50,118 bases of DNA from a virus, in the IMG/VR virus record IMGVR_UViG_3300007352_000006, one strand, 5' to 3'. The notes under the pieces were generated by a model, which was given only the letters and a program-made list of their open reading frames with translations, was not told the DNA's origin and made no database searches. This document shows positions 10,522 to 41,258 of this stretch, piece by piece. Numbering within the stretch: the first letter of the stretch is position 1; each line of letters starts with the position of its first letter. The position numbers were made by a program, and so were the translations under genes.

Positions 10522-10683
10522 GTGAAGCCCTGCAAGCACAAATACGACCGAAAACTCCTCAGGGAACACGAGTATATGTGGGATAATTTCAGTGATCCAT
10601 CAAAGTACATCCCTGGAATGTTGTATTACAGGCCGTGTCGGCTATGTGGAGACCGGAAGCTGGTCAAGTGGGTTGCTGATTGA
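10522..10683 (+). CDS. mini zinc-ribbon-like protein, 53 aa
   Basis: GTG-start ORF below cutoff; CKHKY ... CRLCGDRK; stop overlaps the terL start. Confidence 0.25.
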   Translation: MKPCKHKYDRKLLREHEYMWDNFSDPSKYIPGMLYYRPCRLCGDRKLVKWVAD

Positions 10684-12107
10684 TTGTTCTCGATTACACC
10701 CCGCAACCAAGACAGAAACTGCTCCATGAAACTCCGGCGACGTTCATACTCTACGGCGGTGCTGCCGGGGGGGCGAAAAGCCACGGACTGCGCTGGGATT
10801 TGTACGGTTGGTGTCTGACAGTTCCAGGTATCGACTGCTTCCTTTTCCGCAAAACACTTCCTGAGCTTGAGGCGAATCACATCCGCAAGATGCGTGCGGA
10901 GATTCCCGGCTCCATTGCCACCTACAACGAGTCCCGCAAGAGACTAGAATTCCTGAACGGTTCCGGTCTGAATATGTGTTTCTGCGAAACCGACGATGAT
11001 GTCGTGAAGTACCAGGGCTCGGAAATGCATGTCTTCGCTTTTGACGAGGCTGCTCTTGCGAAACCCGATCACCTGGCCTTCCTGCTGACCCGTAATCGAC
11101 TCGGGGGATTCCAGGAGCGAATCCCGCCGCAATATCGCCATCTTCTGCCGAGGGCCGTGTTTTCCTCCAACCCCGGAGGCCCGGCGCACAACTTCCTGAA
11201 AGAGAACTTCATCGACCCCGCTCCGGCGGAGACGGTCTTTCTCCATCCCCTGTACAGGCGGAAGACCATCTTCATCCCGTCCTCGATGAAGGACAACAAG
11301 TACCTCGATACCGGGTATGAAAACCAGTTCGTCGGGCTGCCCGAGGAACGGAGAAAAGCTCTCGTCGAGGGAGATTGGGATGCCATTGTCGGACAGGCTC
11401 TTCCGATAGACCGTTCCGTCCACATGATTGGTCCATTCAAACCTCCACCCCATTGGACGAAGTTCATGGCGATGGATTGGGGTACGGCGAGGCCGTTTTC
11501 CGTTGGCTGGTACTGCGTCTCGGAGGGGACCGAGGTCGAGTGGAAGATCGGGAATTGGGGGAAGAGATATCTCCCCGCGGGGTCAGTGATTCGGTATCGG
11601 GAATGGTATGGCTGGAACGGCAAAGCCAACCACGGTTGTCGGATGGAATCCCCGGCAGTAGCGAAGAAGATTCTCGAAATCGAAAACGGGGAAAACATCG
11701 ATTACCGTATTGCTGATGGTGCGATGTGGGCCAAAACAGACGGCCCCTCTCCGGCTGAGAGAATGCTTGAAGCTACAGATGGCAGACTGGCCCTTCGCTC
11801 CACAGGGGCCAAGGACCGCAAGATGATGTACGCCGAATGCATTGCGAGACTCATGGGGCAGGACGGCCATCCGATGTTCTTTGCGACATCTGATTGTAAG
11901 CATTTCTGGAGAACGGTTCCAGTATTGATTACAGACGAAATAGACCCCGACAAAGGGCCGGATACAAAGATGGAGGACCACGTATACGATGAATGGTCCT
12001 ATGCTATGCGTTCTCGTCCCTTCATTCAGACGAAGGACGACAGATGGTATCAAGAGAACTACGAAGATTTGAAAAATCTTAAGCCGATTGATCCGTATGC
12101 AACATAA
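10680..12107 (+). CDS. terL: terminase large subunit
   Basis: Walker A GGAAGGAKSH, VFAFDEA Walker B-like motif, nuclease-like C-terminal half; TTG start; 475 aa. Confidence 0.85.
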   Translation: MIVLDYTPQPRQKLLHETPATFILYGGAAGGAKSHGLRWDLYGWCLTVPGIDCFLFRKTLPELEANHIRKMRAEIPGSIATYNESRKRLEFLNGSGLNMCFCETDDDVVKYQGSEMHVFAFDEAALAKPDHLAFLLTRNRLGGFQERIPPQYRHLLPRAVFSSNPGGPAHNFLKENFIDPAPAETVFLHPLYRRKTIFIPSSMKDNKYLDTGYENQFVGLPEERRKALVEGDWDAIVGQALPIDRSVHMIGPFKPPPHWTKFMAMDWGTARPFSVGWYCVSEGTEVEWKIGNWGKRYLPAGSVIRYREWYGWNGKANHGCRMESPAVAKKILEIENGENIDYRIADGAMWAKTDGPSPAERMLEATDGRLALRSTGAKDRKMMYAECIARLMGQDGHPMFFATSDCKHFWRTVPVLITDEIDPDKGPDTKMEDHVYDEWSYAMRSRPFIQTKDDRWYQENYEDLKNLKPIDPYAT

Positions 12108-12849
12108 TCCTACCGTCTATATTACCGAACATATCAATTCCAAGGTAGTTGGTTCGGCCTTTGCGGAAGGCTGCGGGGGCCGGATAGCCTCACCCGTTCG
12201 GCTTCTTGATGGGCCGGCAGTCGTATATGGAATCCTTAGAGGATGCGGCGACATCATACGCCAAGCCGAGTGGGTGGGGCGGGATTTCTTCCATATTGAC
12301 CTCGGGTATTTCAAACGGGGTCACTATGAGGGTTACTACAGAGTTACGCAGAACGCCTTCCAAGCCGATCTTGACGATGTTCTCGTAAGACCAGACAGGT
12401 GGGAAACCCTAAAAATCCCCCTTCGTCCATGGAAAAGGACGGGACGGAACGTAGTCGTATGTCCGATGACGGGAGCCGTGGGCGATTTTCTCAACATCAA
12501 TACGAGAAAATGGATCGAAACCGTTACCGACGAATTGAGGAAGTATACCGAACGCCCAATAATCGTGAAGCCTAAGGGCGATGTCGATATATCCGAGATG
12601 TTTGAGGACGCGTGGTGTGTTGTCACACACTCATCGAATGCTGCCGTGGATGCGGTTTTAGCCGGAGTCCCCGTCGTGACCCTGGGGGATTCGGCCTGCG
12701 AACAGATTTCTTGGGGTTTAAGTGATATCGAATCTCCATTCTGGCCTGAACGGGACTGGTGGTGCCATAAACTCGCCTATCATCAGTTTACTCTTGATGA
12801 ATTCCGTAACGGCGTGGCATGGAAAATCCTTCAGGAACACGATGTTTGA
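12097..12849 (+). CDS. putative GT-B-like glycosyltransferase
   Basis: VVTHSSNAAVDAVLAGVPVVTLGDS resembles the donor-binding half of GT-B enzymes; ATG 12097 preferred to TTG 12088. Confidence 0.4.
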   Translation: MQHNPTVYITEHINSKVVGSAFAEGCGGRIASPVRLLDGPAVVYGILRGCGDIIRQAEWVGRDFFHIDLGYFKRGHYEGYYRVTQNAFQADLDDVLVRPDRWETLKIPLRPWKRTGRNVVVCPMTGAVGDFLNINTRKWIETVTDELRKYTERPIIVKPKGDVDISEMFEDAWCVVTHSSNAAVDAVLAGVPVVTLGDSACEQISWGLSDIESPFWPERDWWCHKLAYHQFTLDEFRNGVAWKILQEHDV

Positions 12850-13441
12850 AGTCATCACCATCGAAGGAATCCAGTATCCGAATCACTCTGATGCTCAGAG
12901 ATGGTATGACCAGCTTCAATATCTGAAAATCGGCCTTTCATACGTCAAGAATTTCGACCTCGCCATTGATGGTGGAGCGTTTGTCGGGGCATGGACGCGG
13001 GAAATGGCGAAAAGATTCAAGAAGGTTGTTGCTTTCGAGCCCGACCCGCAGAATTTCGAGCTTCTGAAGCGAAATACGAAGGAATTCGATAACGTTTTTC
13101 TTCACAACGCCGCTTTGGGCGACCAGAACACGAAAATCGGCCTTGACGGCAAGGTTCCGTGTTCAAGATACATCATTCCGGAGGGCGAAATCCAAATGCT
13201 AAGACTGGATTCGCTCAATCTTGCCCCAACATTCGTGAAATTCGACCTTGAGGGCACTGAAATCTTCGCTCTCCGTGGAGCAGAACAGACCCTGAAGGCA
13301 TATAAGCCAGTTGTTCAGATGGAATACAAGGACAGGGTGTGGGATCGATACAATTCCGGTGATCCGGAAAGGCTTTTGAAATCATGGGGCTGGAAATTCC
13401 AGGAAAAGGCCCACGTTGACCGTATCTACACATGGACCTGA
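12842..13441 (+). CDS. FkbM-family SAM-dependent methyltransferase
   Basis: AIDGGAFVGAWT, VVAFEPDPQNFELLKRN, VKFDLEGTEIFALRG motifs. Confidence 0.7.
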   Translation: MFEVITIEGIQYPNHSDAQRWYDQLQYLKIGLSYVKNFDLAIDGGAFVGAWTREMAKRFKKVVAFEPDPQNFELLKRNTKEFDNVFLHNAALGDQNTKIGLDGKVPCSRYIIPEGEIQMLRLDSLNLAPTFVKFDLEGTEIFALRGAEQTLKAYKPVVQMEYKDRVWDRYNSGDPERLLKSWGWKFQEKAHVDRIYTWT

Positions 13442-13941
13442 TCGAACAGTACCGGATGATGCATGAAGCCGGGAAGTTTCCCGGTTTTTCCTGTCTCCCT
13501 CATCTGAATGAGATCGGTCTTGCGATCATGCGATCGAGATCGAAGACGCTTCTGGACTATGGCTCAGGTGACGGGCAGCAGTACTCTCTTGCCAAGCTCG
13601 ACAAACGCTGGGGTGTTGAGGTCACCTGTTACGATCCAGCGGTGAAGAAATTCGAGACGAAACCATTTCGGAAATTCGATTTCGTTCTCTGCTGTGACGT
13701 TCTTGAACACATTCCGGAAGAGGGCATTGGCCCGGTTCTCGGGGATGTCTTCTGGCACGCCGGGAAATATGTCTTTTTGACCATATCGACCAGGGAAGCG
13801 AGGAAAACGCTTCCCGATGGAAGAAACTGCCATTTGACGGTGAAGCCGATTGAATGGTGGCTACAGCAGATCGGCCCAAGACAGGTGCCCTACGATGTCG
13901 TTTTCGATGAAAAGAATTCTATGTCTTCTCGGGCTTCATGA
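13432..13941 (+). CDS. class I SAM-dependent methyltransferase
   Basis: LLDYGSGDGQ glycine-rich SAM motif and CCDVLEHIPEE. Confidence 0.6.
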   Translation: MDLIEQYRMMHEAGKFPGFSCLPHLNEIGLAIMRSRSKTLLDYGSGDGQQYSLAKLDKRWGVEVTCYDPAVKKFETKPFRKFDFVLCCDVLEHIPEEGIGPVLGDVFWHAGKYVFLTISTREARKTLPDGRNCHLTVKPIEWWLQQIGPRQVPYDVVFDEKNSMSSRAS

Positions 13942-14056
13942 CGACCAGGTTACGTGGTTCGGCCGGAGAAAGGTCGGACAAAACGAATACGTCCTCTCGG
14001 TTCATGTCTGCCGTGTGTGCGGAAGAAGAAAGAATGTAACGAATGATCACCGATAA
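13907..14056 (+). CDS. mini zinc-ribbon-like protein, 49 aa
   Basis: MKRILCLLGLHDD ... CRVCGRRK; paralogous pattern to 10522..10683 and 15155..15343. Confidence 0.35.
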   Translation: MKRILCLLGLHDDQVTWFGRRKVGQNEYVLSVHVCRVCGRRKNVTNDHR

Positions 14057-14987
14057 GATTGACAACATCACCAGTATCGGCCCGGAATTCCGGGCTTCTT
14101 TTTTGCCCGCCCCGAAAAGCGTCAAGATCGAACTGACGGGACGCTGTAACTACCGATGTGGATTCTGCGCTCTTCGCACCCGTACCGTACAGCCGAAATC
14201 AGACATGGATTGGGATTTGTACACCCGTCTGGTTCTGGAAATGCGACAGGCGGATGTCGAGGAACTCGGGATGTTCTATCTCGGCGAATCCTTTCTTTTC
14301 GATTGGCTCCCAGAGGCAATCCGGTTCGCCAAGTCGGCGGGATTCCCATATGTCTTCCTGACCACGAACGGTTCCTGTGCGACCCCGGAAATGGTCGAAG
14401 CCTGCATGGCCGCCGGGCTGGACTCCCTGAAATTCTCAATGAACAACGCCGATGAAGCACAATTCACGAAAGTCGCCGGGGTGAAGGCGAAACTGTGGGC
14501 CGATGCGATAGCAAATCTTCATGCAGCCCGTAAAATACGCGATCAGGGCCCATACGATTGCGGGTTATACGCTTCTTCGATCCGGTACGACGGCGAACAG
14601 CAGGAGAAAATGGAGGCGTTCCTTGAACGGGACGTAATCCCTTATGTGGATGAGCATTACTGGCTACCCCTTTATTCTATGGGCTCTCTGGCTGCACGGC
14701 GTGAGAAAGAGCTTGGATACCGTCCGATTGCCGGAAACCAGGGGAGACTCGGCAATCTCAGGGAGCCGCTGCCGTGCTGGTCCGCCTTTACCGAGGGACA
14801 TATCACTGCCTCGGGAAAACTCAGCGCGTGTTGTTTCGATGCCGACGAACGTTGGGCGATGGCTGATCTCACGGAAGTTGGGTTCATGGACGGATGGAAT
14901 TCCGAATCCTTCCAACGATTACGGGCCGCTCACTTGAAAAAGGATGTCTTCGGAACGCCGTGTGAGGAATGCGTCGCATATGCCTGA
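14043..14987 (+). CDS. radical SAM enzyme with SPASM/twitch-like C-terminal Cys cluster
   Basis: CNYRCGFC (CX3CX2C) near the N-terminus; C-terminal CWSAF..GKLSACC and PCEEC. Confidence 0.8.
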   Translation: MITDKIDNITSIGPEFRASFLPAPKSVKIELTGRCNYRCGFCALRTRTVQPKSDMDWDLYTRLVLEMRQADVEELGMFYLGESFLFDWLPEAIRFAKSAGFPYVFLTTNGSCATPEMVEACMAAGLDSLKFSMNNADEAQFTKVAGVKAKLWADAIANLHAARKIRDQGPYDCGLYASSIRYDGEQQEKMEAFLERDVIPYVDEHYWLPLYSMGSLAARREKELGYRPIAGNQGRLGNLREPLPCWSAFTEGHITASGKLSACCFDADERWAMADLTEVGFMDGWNSESFQRLRAAHLKKDVFGTPCEECVAYA

Positions 14988-15162
14988 TTGGGGGCGCATC
15001 GAAAATCAATACGGCGTTGATTTCGTGGCCTATCTGAAGAGTATTGGTTATCCGGATGATCCTGTAACCAAAGAACTGTCCGAGAATGACGGATATCCAG
15101 GAATTGAAATAATCCACAGTGCGTGGAAGGCATGGAATGAAGGATTTCGTTGCTATGCCTAG
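14980..15162 (+). CDS. hypothetical protein, 60 aa
   Basis: ATG 14980 overlaps the rSAM stop by 8 nt. Confidence 0.4.
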   Translation: MPDWGRIENQYGVDFVAYLKSIGYPDDPVTKELSENDGYPGIEIIHSAWKAWNEGFRCYA

Positions 15163-15343
15163 CGAACAAGCAATAACCGGGATGATTTTATTGTTATGCC
15201 TTTATCTCCCGCTTCTAATCTGGCTCGCTTTCGTAATCATAAAAGATAATGGGCTCATATGTCGTCTGATTGATCATAAGACGGTGTATTTCTGTTCTGG
15301 TTGGGTTCGATGCGACAGATGTTTTAAATGGTTTAATCAATGA
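15155..15343 (+). CDS. small membrane plus zinc-ribbon-like protein, 62 aa
   Basis: TM helix ITGMILLLCLYLPLLIWLAFVII then ICRLIDHK ... CDRC. Confidence 0.4.
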   Translation: MPSEQAITGMILLLCLYLPLLIWLAFVIIKDNGLICRLIDHKTVYFCSGWVRCDRCFKWFNQ

Positions 15344-16047
15344 AAGTCTTTGTTGGCTATGACGCCCGCGAACCGGAAGCTTACAAGGTCTGCGTTCGCT
15401 CGCTCCTGAAACATTCATCTATTGATCTTGATATTATACCACTTCTGGACGCCGACCTAAGGGCGAAGAATTTATACCGGCGACAATACAAGCAACTCGC
15501 CGTGGGCCCGAGATATGATTTTCTTGATGGCAAGCCGTTTTCTACGGATTTTGCGTTCACCCGTTTCCTTGTTCCATCCCTGTGCGATTTTGGACCGGCG
15601 GTTTTCTGCGATGCGGATTTCCTGTGGCGCGGCGATATCAATAGCCTCTTGGATCATTTCGACAATTCCAAGGCTGTGCTGGTTGTCCAACACGACCACA
15701 AGCCGGACGAATCCGAGAAGATGGATCACATGATCCAGGAATCGTACCCGAGAAAGAACTGGTCAAGCCTGATCCTGTGGAACTGCTCGCACTATGCTTG
15801 CCGGGCATTGACGCCAGAGTATGTGAATACAAAACCAGGCTCGGACCTTCATGGGTTCAAATGGGTTGACGACGATCATATCGGGTCGCTCCCCGTTGAG
15901 TGGAATTATCTTGTCGGCTGGAACACGAAGGAACAATGCGAACATCCTTCCGCCGTTCATTTCACGAACGGTATCCCGACGATGCCGGGTTGGTGGAATC
16001 AGGAATATGCCTCGGAATGGCTGAGCACATTGAGAGAAATCCAGTGA
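15340..16047 (+). CDS. GT8-like (GT-A fold) glycosyltransferase
   Basis: FTRFLVPSL, VFCDADFLWRGDINSL (DxD), HFTNG..PGWW resemble family 8 glycosyltransferases. Confidence 0.65.
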   Translation: MKVFVGYDAREPEAYKVCVRSLLKHSSIDLDIIPLLDADLRAKNLYRRQYKQLAVGPRYDFLDGKPFSTDFAFTRFLVPSLCDFGPAVFCDADFLWRGDINSLLDHFDNSKAVLVVQHDHKPDESEKMDHMIQESYPRKNWSSLILWNCSHYACRALTPEYVNTKPGSDLHGFKWVDDDHIGSLPVEWNYLVGWNTKEQCEHPSAVHFTNGIPTMPGWWNQEYASEWLSTLREIQ

Positions 16048-16772
16048 GACGCTGCATAACCAGTTTCTCACAAGCAGGATACGCAGAATATGGCAAGAGA
16101 TTTCTCCAGTCCTATGTGGGGCACTGGCCTATTCCAATTACGGTATTCTATGAGCACAAGAAGCCGGATTTCGAGCATGAAAAAGTCTCCTATATCGACT
16201 TGATGGCTGATGAAGACCTGATCTTCTTTCTCATAGATCATGAATGGGAATCCGCAGCGAACGGAATTCAATGGGACGATTCCGGTAAACCCTTTGCTAA
16301 CTATCGCTATCAGGCGTGCAAGTTCGCCAGAAAAATCTACGCGCTTACATCTCCGCGCATGGAAGATTCCGATTGGCTGATCTGGCTGGACGCCGATATC
16401 GAAACCCACAAGGACATCGACGACAGATTCTTTGCAGAAACCTGCAAGAAAGAATTCGTCGCCTCTTATCTCGGGCGGGCGGATTGGCACCATTCCGAAT
16501 GTGGGTTCGTCGCCTACAATATAAACAAGCGTGGCGACGATTTCCTGGCCCGCATGAGGGATATCTACAATTCCGGGGAACTGTTCGATCTGGACGAATG
16601 GCATGATTCGTTCGTTTTCGATCATGTCAGGAAGAAATGCGAGGAAAGCGGATTGAAATTCCTCAACCTGTCCGCCGGGGTGCCGGGGAATCATGTCTGG
16701 CCGAATACGATCCTCGGCGAATACATGAGTCATAACAAAGGCCCAGAACTGAAGGAACGAGCCTATAAATGA
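16044..16772 (+). CDS. putative GT-A-like glycosyltransferase (DxD)
   Basis: GTG start in a GTGA overlap; ITSFSQAGYAEYGKRFL and WLIWLDADIE motifs. Confidence 0.45.
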   Translation: MRRCITSFSQAGYAEYGKRFLQSYVGHWPIPITVFYEHKKPDFEHEKVSYIDLMADEDLIFFLIDHEWESAANGIQWDDSGKPFANYRYQACKFARKIYALTSPRMEDSDWLIWLDADIETHKDIDDRFFAETCKKEFVASYLGRADWHHSECGFVAYNINKRGDDFLARMRDIYNSGELFDLDEWHDSFVFDHVRKKCEESGLKFLNLSAGVPGNHVWPNTILGEYMSHNKGPELKERAYK

Positions 16773-18160
16773 GCCGTTATATCCAACTTCATGCATTGAT
16801 CGACCATCACAAGCCGCAGACGTTCGTTGAGATCGGTACTTGGAACGGGATGCGAGCACTTGAGCTTTCCAAGTCCCTTCTCAAGCACCATCAACAGGTC
16901 ATGTATTATGGGTTCGACCTGTTCGAAGACGCTACGGAAGAAACCGATAAGGCAGAGTTGAACGTCAAGGCCCATTCCAGCTTGGAAGCGGTAACTGATC
17001 TGCTGTCCCAAGTAGGGCCGGGATTCAAATTCACCCTGATCAAAGGTAATACCCGCGAGACGCTTCCGAAATGGAAGTCGCAGCTTTCGCAGGCTGACAT
17101 GGTGTTCATCGACGGCGGGCACTCAGTCGAAACCATCGCGTCGGACTATGAGAATGTGAGGGGGGCGAAGGTCGTCATTTTCGACGACTATTATGTCCCT
17201 GATGACAAGGGGAGATGTCAGGACACGGAAAAACACGGCTGCAACAAGCTCCTTGAAAACGTACCTCATACGATCCTGTCCGCGAAAGACCCGGTGAAGG
17301 GGGGCGGATTGGTGCAAATGGCCGTCAGTCCTCCGGAGGCGGCAAAGATACAGCTACAGCGGAACGTAGAGGTCAAGACCAAGAACTGCGTCCCGCATCC
17401 GGAGATACAGGCAAACATCCGATATTCGGTCGGATTGAAACCACCGTTGATGCCGAAGATGCCGGCCCACAAACACCTTGCCTTGATGTGCTCGGGCGGC
17501 CCTTCGCTGGAATGGTATCTCTACGAACTGGCGGAAAAACAGAAGGCCGGCGGGAAACTCGTATGTGTCAAGCACGCCCACGATCTTCTGCTGAAAAACA
17601 ACATCGTGCCGGATTTCTGCATCCTTCTCGACCCGAGGGGACATGTGCAGGACTTCATTGATAACCCGCATCCCGAGGTTCATTACCTCGTGGCGTCGAT
17701 GTGCCATCCGTCCACGTTCGACAAGCTGATCGAGAAAAAGGCGAAGCTGTGGACGTATCATGCTGCAGTAGGCGCCGATGAACAAAATCTGCTCAAGGAA
17801 ATCGGTGGACAGGGGCTTCTTATCGGTGGCGGGTCTTCCTCTTGCACAAGAGGGATTTCCGTCATGTGGTCCATCGGATTCCGCAGATTCGAATTGTTTG
17901 GGTATGATTCGTCGTATGTCGAACCGCCAAATTTGTGGAATATGGAACCGGAAGAGCGCAACAAGTTTTGCAAGATCGCCATCAATGGGCGGGAATTTTA
18001 TACGGACTTCGAGAAGCTCGCGGAAGTCCAGGATTACGAAAAACTCAGGAAACACGACATGGGCGGGGATTTCACCGTCCACGGCGGCGGTATGATCCCC
18101 CATGTCGAAAGGATTTTGACACAGAATGTCAATGATACCTTCAGACGCATCTTCGGCTGA
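16769..18160 (+). CDS. fusion of class I methyltransferase and Maf/DUF115 (MptE-like) domain
   Basis: N-terminal FVEIGTWNG ... VFIDGGHS; C-terminal LALMCSGGPSL ... LIGGGSS resembles motility-accessory-factor glycosyltransferases. Confidence 0.55.
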   Translation: MSRYIQLHALIDHHKPQTFVEIGTWNGMRALELSKSLLKHHQQVMYYGFDLFEDATEETDKAELNVKAHSSLEAVTDLLSQVGPGFKFTLIKGNTRETLPKWKSQLSQADMVFIDGGHSVETIASDYENVRGAKVVIFDDYYVPDDKGRCQDTEKHGCNKLLENVPHTILSAKDPVKGGGLVQMAVSPPEAAKIQLQRNVEVKTKNCVPHPEIQANIRYSVGLKPPLMPKMPAHKHLALMCSGGPSLEWYLYELAEKQKAGGKLVCVKHAHDLLLKNNIVPDFCILLDPRGHVQDFIDNPHPEVHYLVASMCHPSTFDKLIEKKAKLWTYHAAVGADEQNLLKEIGGQGLLIGGGSSSCTRGISVMWSIGFRRFELFGYDSSYVEPPNLWNMEPEERNKFCKIAINGREFYTDFEKLAEVQDYEKLRKHDMGGDFTVHGGGMIPHVERILTQNVNDTFRRIFG

Positions 18161-20117
18161 GCTTGCGAACCTCGCCCAGAGTCTGCCCGAAGATGAACTG
18201 AAGAAAATTGCCGATCAGTGCATCCGTGAATTCGATGACGACGACGCAACCCGGAAGCCGTGGTTGCAGATGCACGCCGAGTGGATGAAGCTCTTTTATC
18301 AGGACGATAAGCCGAAAAATCCCCCGTGGCAGGGCGCTTCCAGTGAATCTCTACCCTTGCTTGCCGAGGCTTGTGTCCAGTTTCAGGCCCGCGCTTATCG
18401 CAACCTGTTCCCGAACGAACACGTCATCAAGGCGATGCCGGAGGGAGAGGTTACGAATGACAAAAAAGAACGCGCCAACAGGGTCGGGAAACACATAAGC
18501 TGGCAGCTTATGGTCCGCGACAAGCGGTACAAGTCCGACAAGGACGCCCTCCTGCTTTCCGTTCCCCTACATGGATCGTTTTTCACGAAGACCTATTACG
18601 ATCCGTTTTTGGGGAGAAATCGTACCGATAACGTCAGGGCAGAGGATTTGGTTGTCCCCTACGGGGTCGGGCCGAGGGAACTGGAGGATATCGAACGTAA
18701 AACGCACATCATTTGGATGTCCGTCAACCAGACCCGGTCATTGAAAGCATCTGGATATTTTATTGAGGAAGGGAAACCCTATACGCTCGGTCAGAAAACG
18801 GAAACCCAGAAAGCAACCGAGAAACAGGAAGGATTGCAGGAATCCATCCTCCAGCAAGAACACCTGCCCTGCAAAATTCTTGAACAGCACCGCCTTCTCG
18901 ACTTGGATGGGGACGGTCTGGCGGAGCCCTATATCGTAACGCTCGATTACGCCTCAAGGAAGATACTGAGAATCGCGATCCGGTATGAAACGGACGAAAT
19001 GGGGAATCCTATCGGGGACAAGCGACCGATTGAATTCTTCGTCCATTATCCATTTATGCCGAATCCGGATGGGTTCTACGGGCTGGGATATGGGCATCTG
19101 CTTGGTAACATAAATATTGCCCTCAACAAGATGCTTCGTCAGACGGTTGATGCGGCCACGCTCGCGAATGTTGGGAATCATTCAGGATTCGTGAACCAGG
19201 CTGTCGGGGCCGGCAAGGGCGATATCGAATTCCATCTCGGGAAGTTCAAGACCATCCGGGGGACATCGGAAGACCTTTCCCGCTCGATATATCAGTTCAA
19301 ATTCCCTGGTCCTAATGCTGCGCTGATCGAATTGATAGCCCTTCTGGACGGGAAGGGCCGTGGGCTGGCGTCAGTGCCAGAAGCCCTGACCGGACAGATG
19401 GACAAGGTTGTCCAGCCCACGACTGTTCTTGCTCTTATCGAGCAGGGTTTGCAGGTTTTCTCGACGGTCTATGAGCGGATCATCGAATCGTGGAAGCGCG
19501 AACTTGCCATTCACTATCGTTTGAACCGGAAGTACATGCCGAATTCGGAGTACTTCACGATCCAGGATATGGCGCAGGGACTCCAGAATCTGGCCATCGG
19601 AAAAGACGACTACAAGGATGACTTCCTCGTTACGCCTATCGTCGATCCGAAGATGGCGACCGAACAGCAGAGGCTTGCTAAGGCACAGGCCGAATGGCAG
19701 TTCGTTTCTACGAATCCCATTATCATGCAGAATCCAATTGCATTGTACCGGGCGTCGAAGCGTTATCTTGAAGCCATCGGCTCGACGGACATAGATGAGA
19801 TTCTTCCCCCGATGGTCGCTGACACGCCGCCGAGGGTGGACGATCAGGGGATAGAGAACATGGGGGCGCTCCAACCGATTCCCATGATGTCCGATGTCTA
19901 TATGGACCAGAACCACCTTGAGCATATCAAGAAGATCGACGAATTCCTGCAATCCCCGTATGCCGCACAGATCACGCCAATGGGCCTTCAGATTCTCATG
20001 GGGCATCGGCAGAAGCACGCCGCGTTCCTGTACGGCATGACGGAAACAAATCTGCCTTCCGTCATTGACGATAAGGCTCCGACTATCCCAAGTGCCCAGA
20101 TGGCTCCGCTCCAATGA
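18126..20117 (+). CDS. portal protein
   Basis: 663 aa, first large gene of the head module after terL; size and context; not verified by motif. Confidence 0.6.
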   Translation: MSMIPSDASSAELANLAQSLPEDELKKIADQCIREFDDDDATRKPWLQMHAEWMKLFYQDDKPKNPPWQGASSESLPLLAEACVQFQARAYRNLFPNEHVIKAMPEGEVTNDKKERANRVGKHISWQLMVRDKRYKSDKDALLLSVPLHGSFFTKTYYDPFLGRNRTDNVRAEDLVVPYGVGPRELEDIERKTHIIWMSVNQTRSLKASGYFIEEGKPYTLGQKTETQKATEKQEGLQESILQQEHLPCKILEQHRLLDLDGDGLAEPYIVTLDYASRKILRIAIRYETDEMGNPIGDKRPIEFFVHYPFMPNPDGFYGLGYGHLLGNINIALNKMLRQTVDAATLANVGNHSGFVNQAVGAGKGDIEFHLGKFKTIRGTSEDLSRSIYQFKFPGPNAALIELIALLDGKGRGLASVPEALTGQMDKVVQPTTVLALIEQGLQVFSTVYERIIESWKRELAIHYRLNRKYMPNSEYFTIQDMAQGLQNLAIGKDDYKDDFLVTPIVDPKMATEQQRLAKAQAEWQFVSTNPIIMQNPIALYRASKRYLEAIGSTDIDEILPPMVADTPPRVDDQGIENMGALQPIPMMSDVYMDQNHLEHIKKIDEFLQSPYAAQITPMGLQILMGHRQKHAAFLYGMTETNLPSVIDDKAPTIPSAQMAPLQ

Positions 20118-23528: not shown

Positions 23529-24419
23529 ATGACTGTATCCACTGGCAATTTTGCCGAACTGCTCTGGCCCGGCATCAAGGACCTGTTCGGTCAGGCTTAC
23601 GAGCGTTGGGAGACGAAGTACACGCAGTTCTGCGACATCATGGAATCGGACAAGGCGTTCGAGAAGCTCCAGGGTGTCACCGGCCTGCCGCTGGCTTCGA
23701 TCAAGACCCAGGGCAACCAGATTCCGTTTGTCGATCCCATGCAGGGGTTGCAGAAGGAATTCGTGAACGTCACCTACGCCATCGGTTCCGGTGTTACCCG
23801 CGAAATGTACGAGGACGATCAGTACAACTACATCAACTCGATCCCCTCGATGATCGCGGAGAGCGTCCGGCAGACCGAAGAGACTGTGGCGACGAATGTG
23901 CTGAACAACGGCTTTTCCACCGCTACGGCGGCGGATGGCCTCAGCGTGTTCAACGCAAGCCATGTTCTTGTCGCAGGCGGGACGTATCGCAATCAGCCTT
24001 CGACGGCCGCCGATCTCACGCAGACCTCGCTTGAGCAGGCGTTCATCGACATCTCGGACTACACCGACGACCAAGGCCTGAAGATCAACATCATGCCCAA
24101 GGTTCTCATCGTTCCGACCGCGTTGCAGTTCGTCGCGGAGAAAATCCTCAATACTGAGTATGAGGTCGATACCGCGAACAATACGGTCAATCCGATGAAG
24201 GGCCGGTTGCCGCTCGTTGTCACCCCGTTCCTGACCGATACCGACGCATGGTTCATCAAGACCTCGTCCCGCAACGGGATGGTCTTCTTCAACCGGCGCT
24301 CGGCCGATCTGGAGCGCGACAACGACTTCAACACCCAGAACCTCTTGTTCGCCGGCACCCGCCGTTTCTCGGTTGGCGTCGCCGACGCGCATGGTCTTTA
24401 CGGTTCGCAGGGCGCGTAA
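23529..24419 (+). CDS. major capsid protein
   Basis: 296 aa, strong AAGGAGGG RBS, followed by a strong terminator; composition typical of HK97-fold MCPs. Confidence 0.7.
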   Translation: MTVSTGNFAELLWPGIKDLFGQAYERWETKYTQFCDIMESDKAFEKLQGVTGLPLASIKTQGNQIPFVDPMQGLQKEFVNVTYAIGSGVTREMYEDDQYNYINSIPSMIAESVRQTEETVATNVLNNGFSTATAADGLSVFNASHVLVAGGTYRNQPSTAADLTQTSLEQAFIDISDYTDDQGLKINIMPKVLIVPTALQFVAEKILNTEYEVDTANNTVNPMKGRLPLVVTPFLTDTDAWFIKTSSRNGMVFFNRRSADLERDNDFNTQNLLFAGTRRFSVGVADAHGLYGSQGA

Positions 24420-40010: not shown

Positions 40011-40562
40011 TCGATGCAATCCGGGGCATGGTGGCGGCGGCGATTTTCTTTTTCGATCCGCACGCCCCTGCTTTGTAACGCGGCTTTTCGGTTGGCGCTT
40101 TGCGACTTCCTATCACCTACGGTGAAACCGTGTATCAGGCTCCGGCATCTAACCTGCCGACTGGAACTGCGGGCCGGGCGTTACCCCGACGTGACGCATC
40201 ATCACGGCCGTGAGAGCAGGTGTACAACATCCACGCTCGCCGCAGCACGCTGGATCATGCCATACCAGAATGGCGCTGTAAAGTGGTGCGGCCCCCGGCC
40301 CCTGAATCCATCGCCATCGCTGGCAACTGCCTCCGGCTGGAGACTCGGGGGTGTTCCGGCGCTGACCGCACCACCGACATTATATCAGAAAGCAGAACGG
40401 CCGCCCATTGCTGAGCGGCCGTCTGCGGCGCACCGGGGCCCAAATGAAGTAGGCTGCCAATTCTTGTACCCAGAGGGAGTCTGGGCCACTCGTCTGCTGC
40501 AACAGAACGACATTGCAGTGTCGCAAAAGGCAGCAAATCCACCCTCCCACACCGGCCCTGCG
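40011..40562. other. 552-bp GC-rich region with no credible coding potential
   Basis: The in-frame extension of the lipase ORF is Arg/Cys/Trp-rich; several hairpins at 40393-40517. Confidence 0.3.
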
Positions 40563-41258
40563 ATGTCAATATCCCCCCGCCTGATCCACGCCGCCGCCGT
40601 AGCCTCTGACCGGGTTTACGATGTCTTCCTCAGCGGTGCCGATACTGGTGACGCCGTTGCCTTTGATGAGAACGGCTCGCATATCCTGTGCCTGAAAACG
40701 CCAGAATATCTGATGGTGGCATGGCAGGGGACCGATTCCAGTAATTGGCGGGATGTCGCCTCGAATATGAGGATCGATCCCAAACCAACACCGCTGGGAG
40801 GCTGGGCGCACGCCGGATATCTGTCCTATACCTTGAAGGGGTGGGGCCCGGTAAGGGGCTGGCTGGAACAGAACGCTGATGGACGACCTGTTTACGCAAC
40901 GGGCCACTCAAGGGGCGGAGCCGCGGCTACAGTGGCTTTACAGTTCTGGCACCACTGGACGGCCGCGATCACGTTTGGTGCTCCTAAACCCGGAAATCTG
41001 GCGTTCTGGGCGGCTATTAAAGCCCCGGTCTACAGGGTGACGATCGAATCCGACTTCGCCCCCGAACATCCCACGGTATTTGGGATTCCAGTACCGGGTT
41101 ATTGGCAAGGTGGAGAACAATTGATGCTGGATCAATTCGGGCTGACCCCAGTCGAATGGAAGCCGATGGCGAACCGGGGCCGGCAGGACCGATCACCGCA
41201 CAATTCCGGGCTCTACCGGACATGGGCGGCGATGGCGGCGGCATTAAGTACCGTTTAG
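40563..41258 (+). CDS. class 3 lipase / alpha-beta hydrolase, 231 aa
   Basis: VAWQGTDSSNW and GHSRGGA (GxSxG) motifs; start at MSISPRL rather than track start 40014. Confidence 0.7.
   Translation: MSISPRLIHAAAVASDRVYDVFLSGADTGDAVAFDENGSHILCLKTPEYLMVAWQGTDSSNWRDVASNMRIDPKPTPLGGWAHAGYLSYTLKGWGPVRGWLEQNADGRPVYATGHSRGGAAATVALQFWHHWTAAITFGAPKPGNLAFWAAIKAPVYRVTIESDFAPEHPTVFGIPVPGYWQGGEQLMLDQFGLTPVEWKPMANRGRQDRSPHNSGLYRTWAAMAAALSTV

Follow-up and report, generated by a model that had tools for sequence, protein, structure and literature searches.

The DNA analyzed here, called the window in the following, is a viral stretch of 50,118 nucleotides (IMG/VR record IMGVR_UViG_3300007352_000006), which harbors on its plus strand a gene for a radical S-adenosylmethionine (SAM) enzyme, hereafter rSAM. 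According to the reading favored here, which is given a probability of about one half, rSAM is a twitch-type radical SAM enzyme that tailors a sugar, either as an oxidoreductase or as an epimerase, within a glycosylation system. The putative core of this system is a GT8-like retaining glycosyltransferase (GT), joined in most relatives by a tetratricopeptide repeat (TPR) protein whose C-terminal domain is GT9-like and by a methyltransferase of the Methyltransf_23 (MT23) family. The gene and its motifs are located as follows:

14043..14987, plus strand: radical SAM/twitch-type enzyme gene (rSAM, P0001), 314 amino acids (aa); Pfam Radical_SAM and SPASM matches above the cut-offs
14145..14168, plus strand: CX3CX2C motif (C35, C39, C42; CNYRCGFC) for the SAM-binding 4Fe-4S cluster; read in the sequence, invariant in the alignment
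14775..14834, plus strand: C245-x12-G258-x4-C263(C264), first half of the predicted auxiliary-cluster (twitch) motif; seen in the alignment and as a hairpin in the AlphaFold2 (AF2) model
14961..14972, plus strand: C307-x2-C310 (P-C307-EE-C310), second half of the predicted auxiliary-cluster ligands; both cysteines invariant

The open reading frame (ORF) had originally been predicted from the letters alone and proved to be a real gene. It has an ATG start, its N-terminus (MITDKID...) is co-aligned with the N-termini of its homologues, and the best of the more than 5000 homologues reaches 72% identity. A word-indexed search yielded 5126 relatives, the best 120 of them at 67-72% identity, and the family comprises more than 5000 proteins at 60-72%. 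Since this high identity coincides with only 136 clusters below E=1e-30 in a library of 50%-identity representatives, the family is compact and strongly constrained. The protein has no PHROG, and 50,697 deposited phage genomes gave a single weak match (24% identity). By a limited pattern scan, the gene was detected on 72 IMG/VR viral contigs and in 194 GTDB genome stretches.

The CX3CX2C motif lies exactly where the original prediction had placed it, and the terminal PCEEC (C307, C310) was likewise recovered. The region preceding the latter reads C245-WSAFTEGHITAS-G258-KLSA-C263-C264, i.e., C-x12-G-x4-C counted from the cysteine. It had been written as CWSAF-x12-GKLSACC; the motif C...GX4C holds, but the spacing had to be corrected, as only 8 residues separate CWSAF from GKLSACC. 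C310 is the last cysteine, the stop codon follows four residues on, and the protein ends at residue 314. A CX2CX5CX3C string, whose absence had been stated before, does not occur in the 314-aa sequence. Pfam assigned residues 29-165 to Radical_SAM (PF04055; E=1.8e-12, 48.2 bits, cut-off 29.5) and residues 245-310 to SPASM (E=5.1e-9, 36.7 bits, cut-off 21.5), the latter because the SPASM profile also covers twitch-like domains. In an alignment of 31 full-length relatives, down to 26% identity, the only invariant cysteines were 35, 39, 42, 245, 263, 307 and 310, while C264 was variable and G258 was at least 90% conserved. The invariant basic residues K28, K97, K130, R294 and H297 suggest an anionic substrate bearing a phosphate or a carboxylate. 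Eight relatives of 585-605 aa (P0272-P0279) contain an intein (PF14890), which in P0272 interrupts CX3CX2C precisely at its second cysteine, C39 (...RCNFRC, about 275 aa, CGFCAL...). Inteins favor the most conserved sites of essential phage genes.

In BtrN, the ligands of the auxiliary cluster are arranged as a C...GX4C hairpin and a downstream CX2C. The four invariant extra cysteines of rSAM show the same layout and are the predicted ligands of a single auxiliary 4Fe-4S cluster. Hence, the alignment supports the earlier proposal of one auxiliary cluster of the twitch or partial-SPASM type, predicted on C245, C263, C307 and C310. The arrangement corresponds to a truncated SPASM domain, in which CX9-15GX4C is located on a beta-hairpin and followed by further cysteines. 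It does not correspond to the seven-cysteine SPASM motif (CX9-15GX4C ... CX2CX5CX3C ... C), since the four cysteines named are the only conserved ones after the core. In the AF2 model (pLDDT 92.4), the hairpin spans residues 251-261 with strands 251-254 and 259-261.

The model has the partial TIM-barrel core of the radical SAM superfamily and superposes near full length on ChlB, SkfB, DesII, SuiB, MoaA, BlsE, BtrN and anSME, the anaerobic sulfatase-maturing enzyme (Z 19-21). A Foldseek search returned the same class of twitch/SPASM neighbors. The comparison with BtrN (Z 19.7, rmsd 2.6 Å, 198 residues) included residues 20-314 of rSAM, and the values for DesII, BlsE and SpeY were 20.2, 19.9 and 12.7, respectively. 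Membership was thus established at the level of the superfamily. Orthology to BtrN-type (DOIA) dehydrogenases was rejected because phmmer aligned only residues 26-126 (E=0.003), identity was 16-18% and no aminoglycoside genes lie nearby. Curated families including NrdG, MoaA, PqqE, NirJ, AhbD, TYW1 and viperin scored about 18-62 bits against NCBIfam cut-offs of 130-650 (tungsten-cofactor maturase 62/380, MoaA 46/325, PqqE 45/381, prokaryotic viperin 40/180, NrdG 22/131). A QueE model was not among the NCBIfam matches listed. The original prediction would have been given up upon clear orthology to a housekeeping enzyme such as QueE or NrdG; with scores this far below the cut-offs, it withstood that test.

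The second line of evidence is the position of rSAM among glycosylation genes. Besides rSAM, the relevant part of the window contains:

10680..12107, plus strand: large terminase (TerL), bordering the cassette on the left; 33% identical to large subunits of annotated terminases (tblastn, E=1e-55)
12088..12849, plus strand: GT-B-like protein; weak DUF6716/Epimerase_2 matches, homologues in 16 related loci
12722..13441, plus strand: FkbM-family methyltransferase; TIGR01444 65 bits, above cut-off; phrog_8156
13432..13941, plus strand: class I methyltransferase (MT23); Pfam and PHROG matches
13850..14056, plus strand: small Cys-rich ORF overlapping the rSAM start; weak phrog_15735 match, not a conserved partner
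14944..15162 and 15119..15343, plus strand: two small ORFs between rSAM and the GT8-like gene; not conserved partners
15340..16047, plus strand: GT8-like retaining glycosyltransferase, the regular partner of rSAM; phrog_28018 E=7e-64, weak Pfam GT8 match
15900..16772, plus strand: 290-aa cassette protein (cluster 'u6'), whose true start is probably downstream of 16047; homologues in 19 viral rSAM loci
16769..18160, plus strand: Methyltransf_24 plus MptE-like (Maf/PseD-type) protein; Pfam match
18126..20117, plus strand: portal protein, bordering the cassette on the right; 30.4 bits with Pfam SU10_portal, at cut-off
23529..24419: Mu gpT-like capsid gene; profile match

The genes between TerL and the portal gene are co-oriented and tightly packed, and their GC content (0.48-0.55) is the same as that of the flanks. 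TerL, the SU10-type portal and the Mu gpT-like capsid confirm the phage setting, and the GT8-like, methyltransferase and MptE-like neighbors bear out that rSAM belongs to a glycosylation cassette, as had been supposed. The GT8-like protein (AF2 model, pLDDT 93.8) has an invariant D91-x-D93, and its top Foldseek matches were WbbM (GT8 domain), LgtC, GlyE, XXYLT1, UGGT and glycogenin. Among the 56 viral loci with flanks on both sides of rSAM, a GT8-like gene was present in 39 and directly adjacent in 32, immediately downstream in 23 cases and immediately upstream in nine. In most phages, the two genes are contiguous with no small ORF between them. The cassettes adjoin, on the same strand, genes for terminases, portals or capsids that belong to several unrelated types, and further recurrent neighbors are TPR protein, Methyltransf_23 (in 26 viral loci), GDP-mannose-dehydratase-like, DegT aminotransferase, GT29-like and MptE-like genes. 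Elsewhere in the window, a 414-aa protein (40014-41258) contains a class 3 lipase domain (PF01764, E=3.6e-9).

GT8-like genes also occur without rSAM in cultured phages, namely Caulobacter giant phages, Pelagibacter phage Mosig, Synechococcus S-SCSM2R, Stenotrophomonas DLP_6 and the podovirus MW202512.1. The latter, a complete 44.4-kb genome from a spring, carries TPR, endonuclease, FkbM and GT8-like genes directly after the major capsid gene (L240, 14735-29367) and no rSAM gene. Such cassettes fit an accessory role of rSAM, possibly tied to anoxia.

The gene is not restricted to phages, and the description of rSAM as a phage enzyme has to be amended in this respect: the phage setting stands, a phage-specific enzyme does not. 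Chromosomal orthologues with 65-71% identity reside in Betaproteobacteria (Usitatibacteraceae and other Burkholderiales), close to hemN, a Crp/Fnr regulator, ccoNOP/ccoG, usp, an NMO-family flavoprotein gene, sirB, nnrS, ppiC and narGHJI. The gene usually precedes the Dnr/Crp regulator gene and the flavoprotein gene. One such cellular orthologue is that of Betaproteobacteria bacterium GR16-43 (CP019169.1). In a FastTree tree, the viral sequences were diverse and paraphyletic and the cellular ones formed two tight clades nested among them, a nesting from which no direction of transfer is read. Of 41 cellular low-oxygen loci, 22 have a box of the FNR type (TTGA[TC]-N4-[AG]TCAA) at a distance of 50-120 bp upstream of the start codon of rSAM, as have 8 of 27 genome loci of unknown context, compared to none of 63 viral loci and a background rate of 0.044 per 270 bp. 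Due to this enrichment, the cellular orthologues very probably belong to an FNR/Dnr regulon, by which low oxygen would turn on the gene in some bacteria of soil and water. Two ORF clusters of the low-oxygen islands (c29, c47) were considered as GT8-like and rejected (hhalign probability 0.1%); these ORFs may be spurious.

Although usually far apart on cellular chromosomes, rSAM and the GT8-like gene go together. All five cellular rSAM genomes tested hold one strong GT8-like homologue (E 1e-85 to 1e-98) megabases away; in genome G001, for example, the positions are 4.65 Mb for rSAM and 1.62 Mb for the GT8-like gene. Of 251 evenly sampled genomes of the Burkholderiales, the order of G001, 13 carried rSAM, 26 carried the GT8-like gene and 12 carried both, while 1.3 were expected (Fisher p=1e-12). 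The cellular GT8-like gene is accompanied by genes for between one and four TPR proteins that end in a GT9-like domain, Methyltransf_23, a DegT aminotransferase, a sugar nucleotidyltransferase, an ABC-2 exporter and TPR-GT41. The phage TPR protein is homologous over its full length to the TPR proteins of these loci (a PDB sequence search with it matched repeats only), and the MT23 of the window shares 34% identity (E=4e-26) with the methyltransferase beside the cellular GT8-like gene. No homologues of the 15900 ORF and of the Methyltransf_24/MptE-like protein were found in the five cellular carrier genomes. With GT8-like, TPR and MT23 proteins in common, the phage cassette mirrors a cellular glycan island. 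In some Rhodocyclales, rSAM is located inside such an island. An Uliginosibacterium metagenome-assembled genome (MAG; locus L046) encodes TPR-GT, rSAM, KpsF, GT8 and MT23, in this order, on one strand with no phage genes. We regard rSAM as an accessory member of the island that has been moved under oxygen control in many bacteria. In Usitatibacter-like loci (L216-L220), a secretin, three unknown proteins, a PpiC-type rotamase, the GT8-like protein, an ABC-2 permease, an ABC ATPase and an 1100-aa TPR-GT41 (OGT-like) protein are encoded in a conserved order, which looks like an export-linked glycan or glycoprotein system.

Fusion proteins provided a third line of evidence. P0134 and P0283, from two contigs, combine a KpsF/GutQ SIS domain (TIGR00393, 212 bits, above cut-off) with an rSAM domain 50% identical to that of the phage; P0280 joins an MptE-like domain to rSAM (45% identity), and in P0255 a more distant rSAM (32% identity) is linked to PF05159 (Capsule_synth), which we take to be the KpsC/KpsS capsule family. 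A KpsF-type SIS+CBS isomerase gene directly adjoins the GT8-like gene in two cellular loci (L228, L232), and in another one (L058) KpsF lies directly downstream of an rSAM gene with an FNR box. All fusions point to sugar and none to peptide chemistry, several of them to sugars of the lipopolysaccharide (LPS) core such as 3-deoxy-D-manno-oct-2-ulosonic acid (Kdo) and heptose. A cytidylyltransferase-like domain was seen in a cluster of structural neighbors in the Atlas, and is taken as a lead only.

By analogy to BtrN, SpeY and HygY, rSAM would cleave SAM reductively, and the resulting 5'-deoxyadenosyl radical would take a hydrogen atom from a carbon of the sugar. The radical formed on the substrate might then be oxidized via the auxiliary cluster to a keto-sugar (dehydrogenase), which could be used by a DegT aminotransferase or a reductase. 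Alternatively, it might be re-quenched from the other face, giving an epimer (epimerase). Both routes would be independent of O2 and NAD. The probable substrate is an anionic sugar like those of the LPS core, with a sugar derived from arabinose-5-phosphate or Kdo and a heptose as candidates, and it might be free, activated or already transferred. Since minimal phage cassettes (TPR, MT23, rSAM, GT8) lack sugar-activation genes, rSAM must act either on a metabolite common in the host or on the sugar after its transfer. Virion proteins are the most plausible target in phages, as the cassettes lie beside capsid, portal and terminase genes and encode TPR-GT proteins; host surface molecules are less likely. 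In Betaproteobacteria, control of the FNR type would mean that the modification is made, or is made by the rSAM route, only at low oxygen.

It is conceivable, though we advance this only tentatively, that rSAM and the GT8-like protein constitute an oxygen-independent branch, often with KpsF, a TPR-GT9-like protein and a methyltransferase, of a TPR-GT protein glycosylation pathway producing an LPS-core-like methylated glycan. This branch would be switched by FNR in Betaproteobacteria and would be used by many uncultured phages, with the genes in head or packaging operons, to decorate virions in anoxic habitats, and the sugar step, e.g., of the arabinose-5-phosphate/Kdo type, would be new to radical SAM enzymes.

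Several observations weigh against sugar tailoring. The literature searches found no characterized member of the family, and the structural matches are blind to sugar versus peptide substrates, as the scores of ChlB, SkfB and SuiB reach those of DesII, BlsE and BtrN. In most cellular genomes, rSAM adjoins the Dnr/Crp regulator and the NMO flavoprotein, not sugar genes, so that the enzyme may have another role, or an additional one, in cells. Of the genomes with a GT8-like gene, half are without rSAM, the co-occurrence was counted in related genomes, so that the p-value overstates independence, and the cassette of the window is without TPR-GT and KpsF partners.

Two alternatives are unlikely to about the same degree. 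According to the first, rSAM modifies a residue, e.g., the attachment residue, of a protein glycosylated by the cassette (capsid, tail or host surface), in the manner of anSME or an epimerase. The TPR partners hint at a protein as the target, the structural neighbors include anSME and EpeE, and the cassettes border on capsid, portal and terminase genes. On the other hand, 60-72% identity is kept across phages with unrelated terminases, portals and capsids as well as in the cellular copies, which is hard to square with co-evolving protein substrates, and the fusions involve sugar-pathway domains (KpsF SIS, MptE-like, Capsule_synth), not protein-binding ones. Assignment as an anaerobic sulfatase-maturing enzyme itself was rejected, as only one cluster motif is present and no sulfatase genes occur in the contexts examined.

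The other of these two alternatives, equally improbable, regards rSAM as an auxiliary metabolic gene apart from the cassette, i.e., a low-oxygen host enzyme that acts in cells with the NMO-family flavoprotein and aids the anaerobic metabolism of the host during infection. The location of the cellular orthologues in hemN-fnr-ccoNOQP-nnrS-narGHJI islands speaks for it, as does the NMO-like gene in 39 of 80 genome loci. However, this gene was present in no viral locus, the position of the phage rSAM is tied to the GT8-like gene in two different orders, and 12 of 13 cellular rSAM carriers possess a GT8-like gene as well. Moreover, some cellular islands unite rSAM, KpsF, GT8, MT23 and TPR-GT.

A special case of sugar tailoring, and a still less probable one, is that rSAM is the O2-independent counterpart of KdoO, the Fe/2-oxoglutarate Kdo 3-hydroxylase (Kdo to Ko or similar), acting on an LPS-core-like glycan. 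The FNR boxes of cellular rSAM genes in low-oxygen islands would suit such a role, and so would the links to the Kdo pathway by KpsF fusion or adjacency and by the Capsule_synth (PF05159) fusion. Yet radical SAM hydroxylation is rare chemistry, and the genomes argue against the idea. KdoO (PF11004) was absent from the five carrier genomes searched first, where the control was silent, and the search was repeated on the 251 genomes of the order. Here it was detected in 43 genomes, all of them outside the 13 rSAM carriers and the 26 GT8-like carriers. As KdoO is lacking in these rSAM carriers, the two enzymes do not form an aerobic/anaerobic pair within one genome, and the idea of a KdoO twin is not supported. 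In this sample, KdoO and the GT8-like gene were mutually exclusive (0 of 26 GT8-like carriers versus 43 of 225 other genomes), which may reflect phylogeny only.

Peptide maturation had originally been treated as an open reading on a par with sugar modification. The two do not stand as equals, and it is very unlikely that rSAM matures ribosomally synthesized and post-translationally modified peptides (RiPPs) by introducing, e.g., thioether or other cross-links into the flanking small Cys-rich ORFs. Peptide maturases are frequent among SPASM/twitch enzymes, ChlB, SkfB, SuiB and CteB are among the top structural matches, and small Cys-rich ORFs do flank rSAM in the window. But none of the ORFs 13850-14056, 14944-15162 and 15119-15343 had a homologue in 152 related loci, and no conserved small neighbor was seen beside the cellular orthologues. 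RiPP systems are characterized by a conserved adjacent precursor gene, whereas rSAM usually abuts GT8-like or TerL genes, the former directly in 32 of the 56 viral loci mentioned above. In the AF2 model, the core is preceded by no more than about 25 residues, which form one helix, so that a leader-binding domain like the RiPP recognition element (RRE) would hardly fit; no further Pfam domain besides Radical_SAM and SPASM was found in rSAM, and some maturases are without an RRE. Every NCBIfam peptide-maturase model remained far under its cut-off. Taken together, the unconserved small ORFs, the adjacency of rSAM and the GT8-like gene and the apparent lack of room for a peptide-recognition domain in 314 residues favor sugar tailoring. 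Small Cys-rich, zinc-ribbon-like ORFs are scattered in the cassette (another one at 10522-10683), and two of them split the usually contiguous rSAM-GT8 pair. They may be mobile mini-genes, and we regard the three ORFs named above as passengers unrelated to rSAM.

Finally, it is hardly to be expected that rSAM modifies nucleotides in the manner of viperin or MoaA, with an NTP or DNA as the substrate. Among proteins of solved structure, viperin (E=1.4e-6) and viperin-like enzymes matched the sequence best, but these matches are confined to the core shared by radical SAM enzymes (residues 22-165), and those of the NCBIfam models for MoaA and viperin are the usual N-terminal ones, far below the cut-offs. 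Viperin has no auxiliary cluster and that of MoaA has three cysteine ligands, as against four invariant extra cysteines in rSAM. The partners are glycosyltransferases and methyltransferases in a morphogenesis module.

The origin of the cassette was also considered. The window is a whole contig (C24) of a 5.4-Mb MAG (G000), in which no second copy of rSAM or of the GT8-like gene was found. In the phylum of this MAG, 49 of 401 genomes match rSAM distantly, with E-values no better than about 1e-45; ORF calling was naive and poor in these high-GC genomes. Pfam domains near the distant relatives (DegT three times, epimerase and GT1 twice each, NeuB and WbqC once each) give a faint sugar signal that was not used as evidence. 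Since there is no second copy in the MAG and the phylum holds only distant relatives, the cassette does not stem from the binned host lineage, or the contig was mis-binned.

The rSAM family links glycosylation cassettes in the structural module of phages, a TPR-GT/GT8 island of Betaproteobacteria and oxygen control of the FNR type. If solved, its chemistry would define a new oxygen-independent sugar modification and help to find out with what virions or hosts are decorated by these widespread phage cassettes. For annotation, rSAM should not be named a peptide maturase, MoaA, PqqE or 'SPASM maturase'.

Among known systems, the group 2 capsule genes of Escherichia coli (kpsF-kpsU-kpsC-kpsS), which serve the supply and transfer of Kdo, resemble the rSAM loci in that KpsF SIS and KpsC/S (PF05159) domains are fused or adjacent to rSAM relatives. 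In contrast, the capsule system has no radical SAM enzyme and the window has no KpsF, KpsU, KpsC or KpsS genes. In mycobacteriophages, glycosyltransferase genes of the structural module were reportedly proposed or shown by Freeman et al. in 2023 to decorate capsid and tail proteins. The hosts and transferase families are different there, and we are not aware of a radical SAM component in virion glycosylation by mycobacteriophages. Flagellin glycosylation in Caulobacter involves FlmG, which consists of a TPR domain and a glycosyltransferase domain (PMC7591256). The partners of rSAM (TPR+GT, MptE-like, DegT, methyltransferases) resemble the components of such flagellin/protein O-glycosylation systems (FlmG, Maf/MptE-like), which suggests that a protein is glycosylated in the cytoplasm. 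The transferase domains of the rSAM partners look GT9-like and GT8-like, unlike those of the FlmG/Maf systems. To our knowledge, these systems do not include a radical SAM enzyme.

With respect to the enzyme itself, anSME, SuiB, SkfB and ChlB share the overall fold and the Pfam SPASM match with rSAM. The full-SPASM maturases among them differ by two auxiliary clusters, the seven-cysteine motif, peptide-binding elements and adjacent precursor genes, none of which is present or conserved with rSAM. As far as we know, radical SAM enzymes that tailor sugars have so far come almost only from antibiotic pathways. SpeY (spectinomycin dehydrogenase) and HygY (hygromycin B epimerase), twitch enzymes in accordance with the PDB title of 7wzv, as well as DesII and BlsE, which act on nucleotide-linked sugars, perform without O2 or NAD the kind of sugar tailoring proposed for rSAM. 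They show no orthology to it at the sequence level and belong to antibiotic pathways of actinomycetes; we know of none in phages or under FNR control. BtrN, the 2-deoxy-scyllo-inosamine dehydrogenase of butirosin biosynthesis and founding twitch enzyme, is shorter than rSAM by about 60 residues, matches it in the N-terminal core only, at the low identity given above, and occurs in aminoglycoside clusters, whereas rSAM is found in glycosyltransferase cassettes and FNR-controlled islands. Both have a small size and the features of a single auxiliary cluster with the C...GX4C hairpin and CX2C. BtrN acts on a carbohydrate-like small molecule, and its pathway includes an aminotransferase of the DegT family, as do many of the phage rSAM cassettes.

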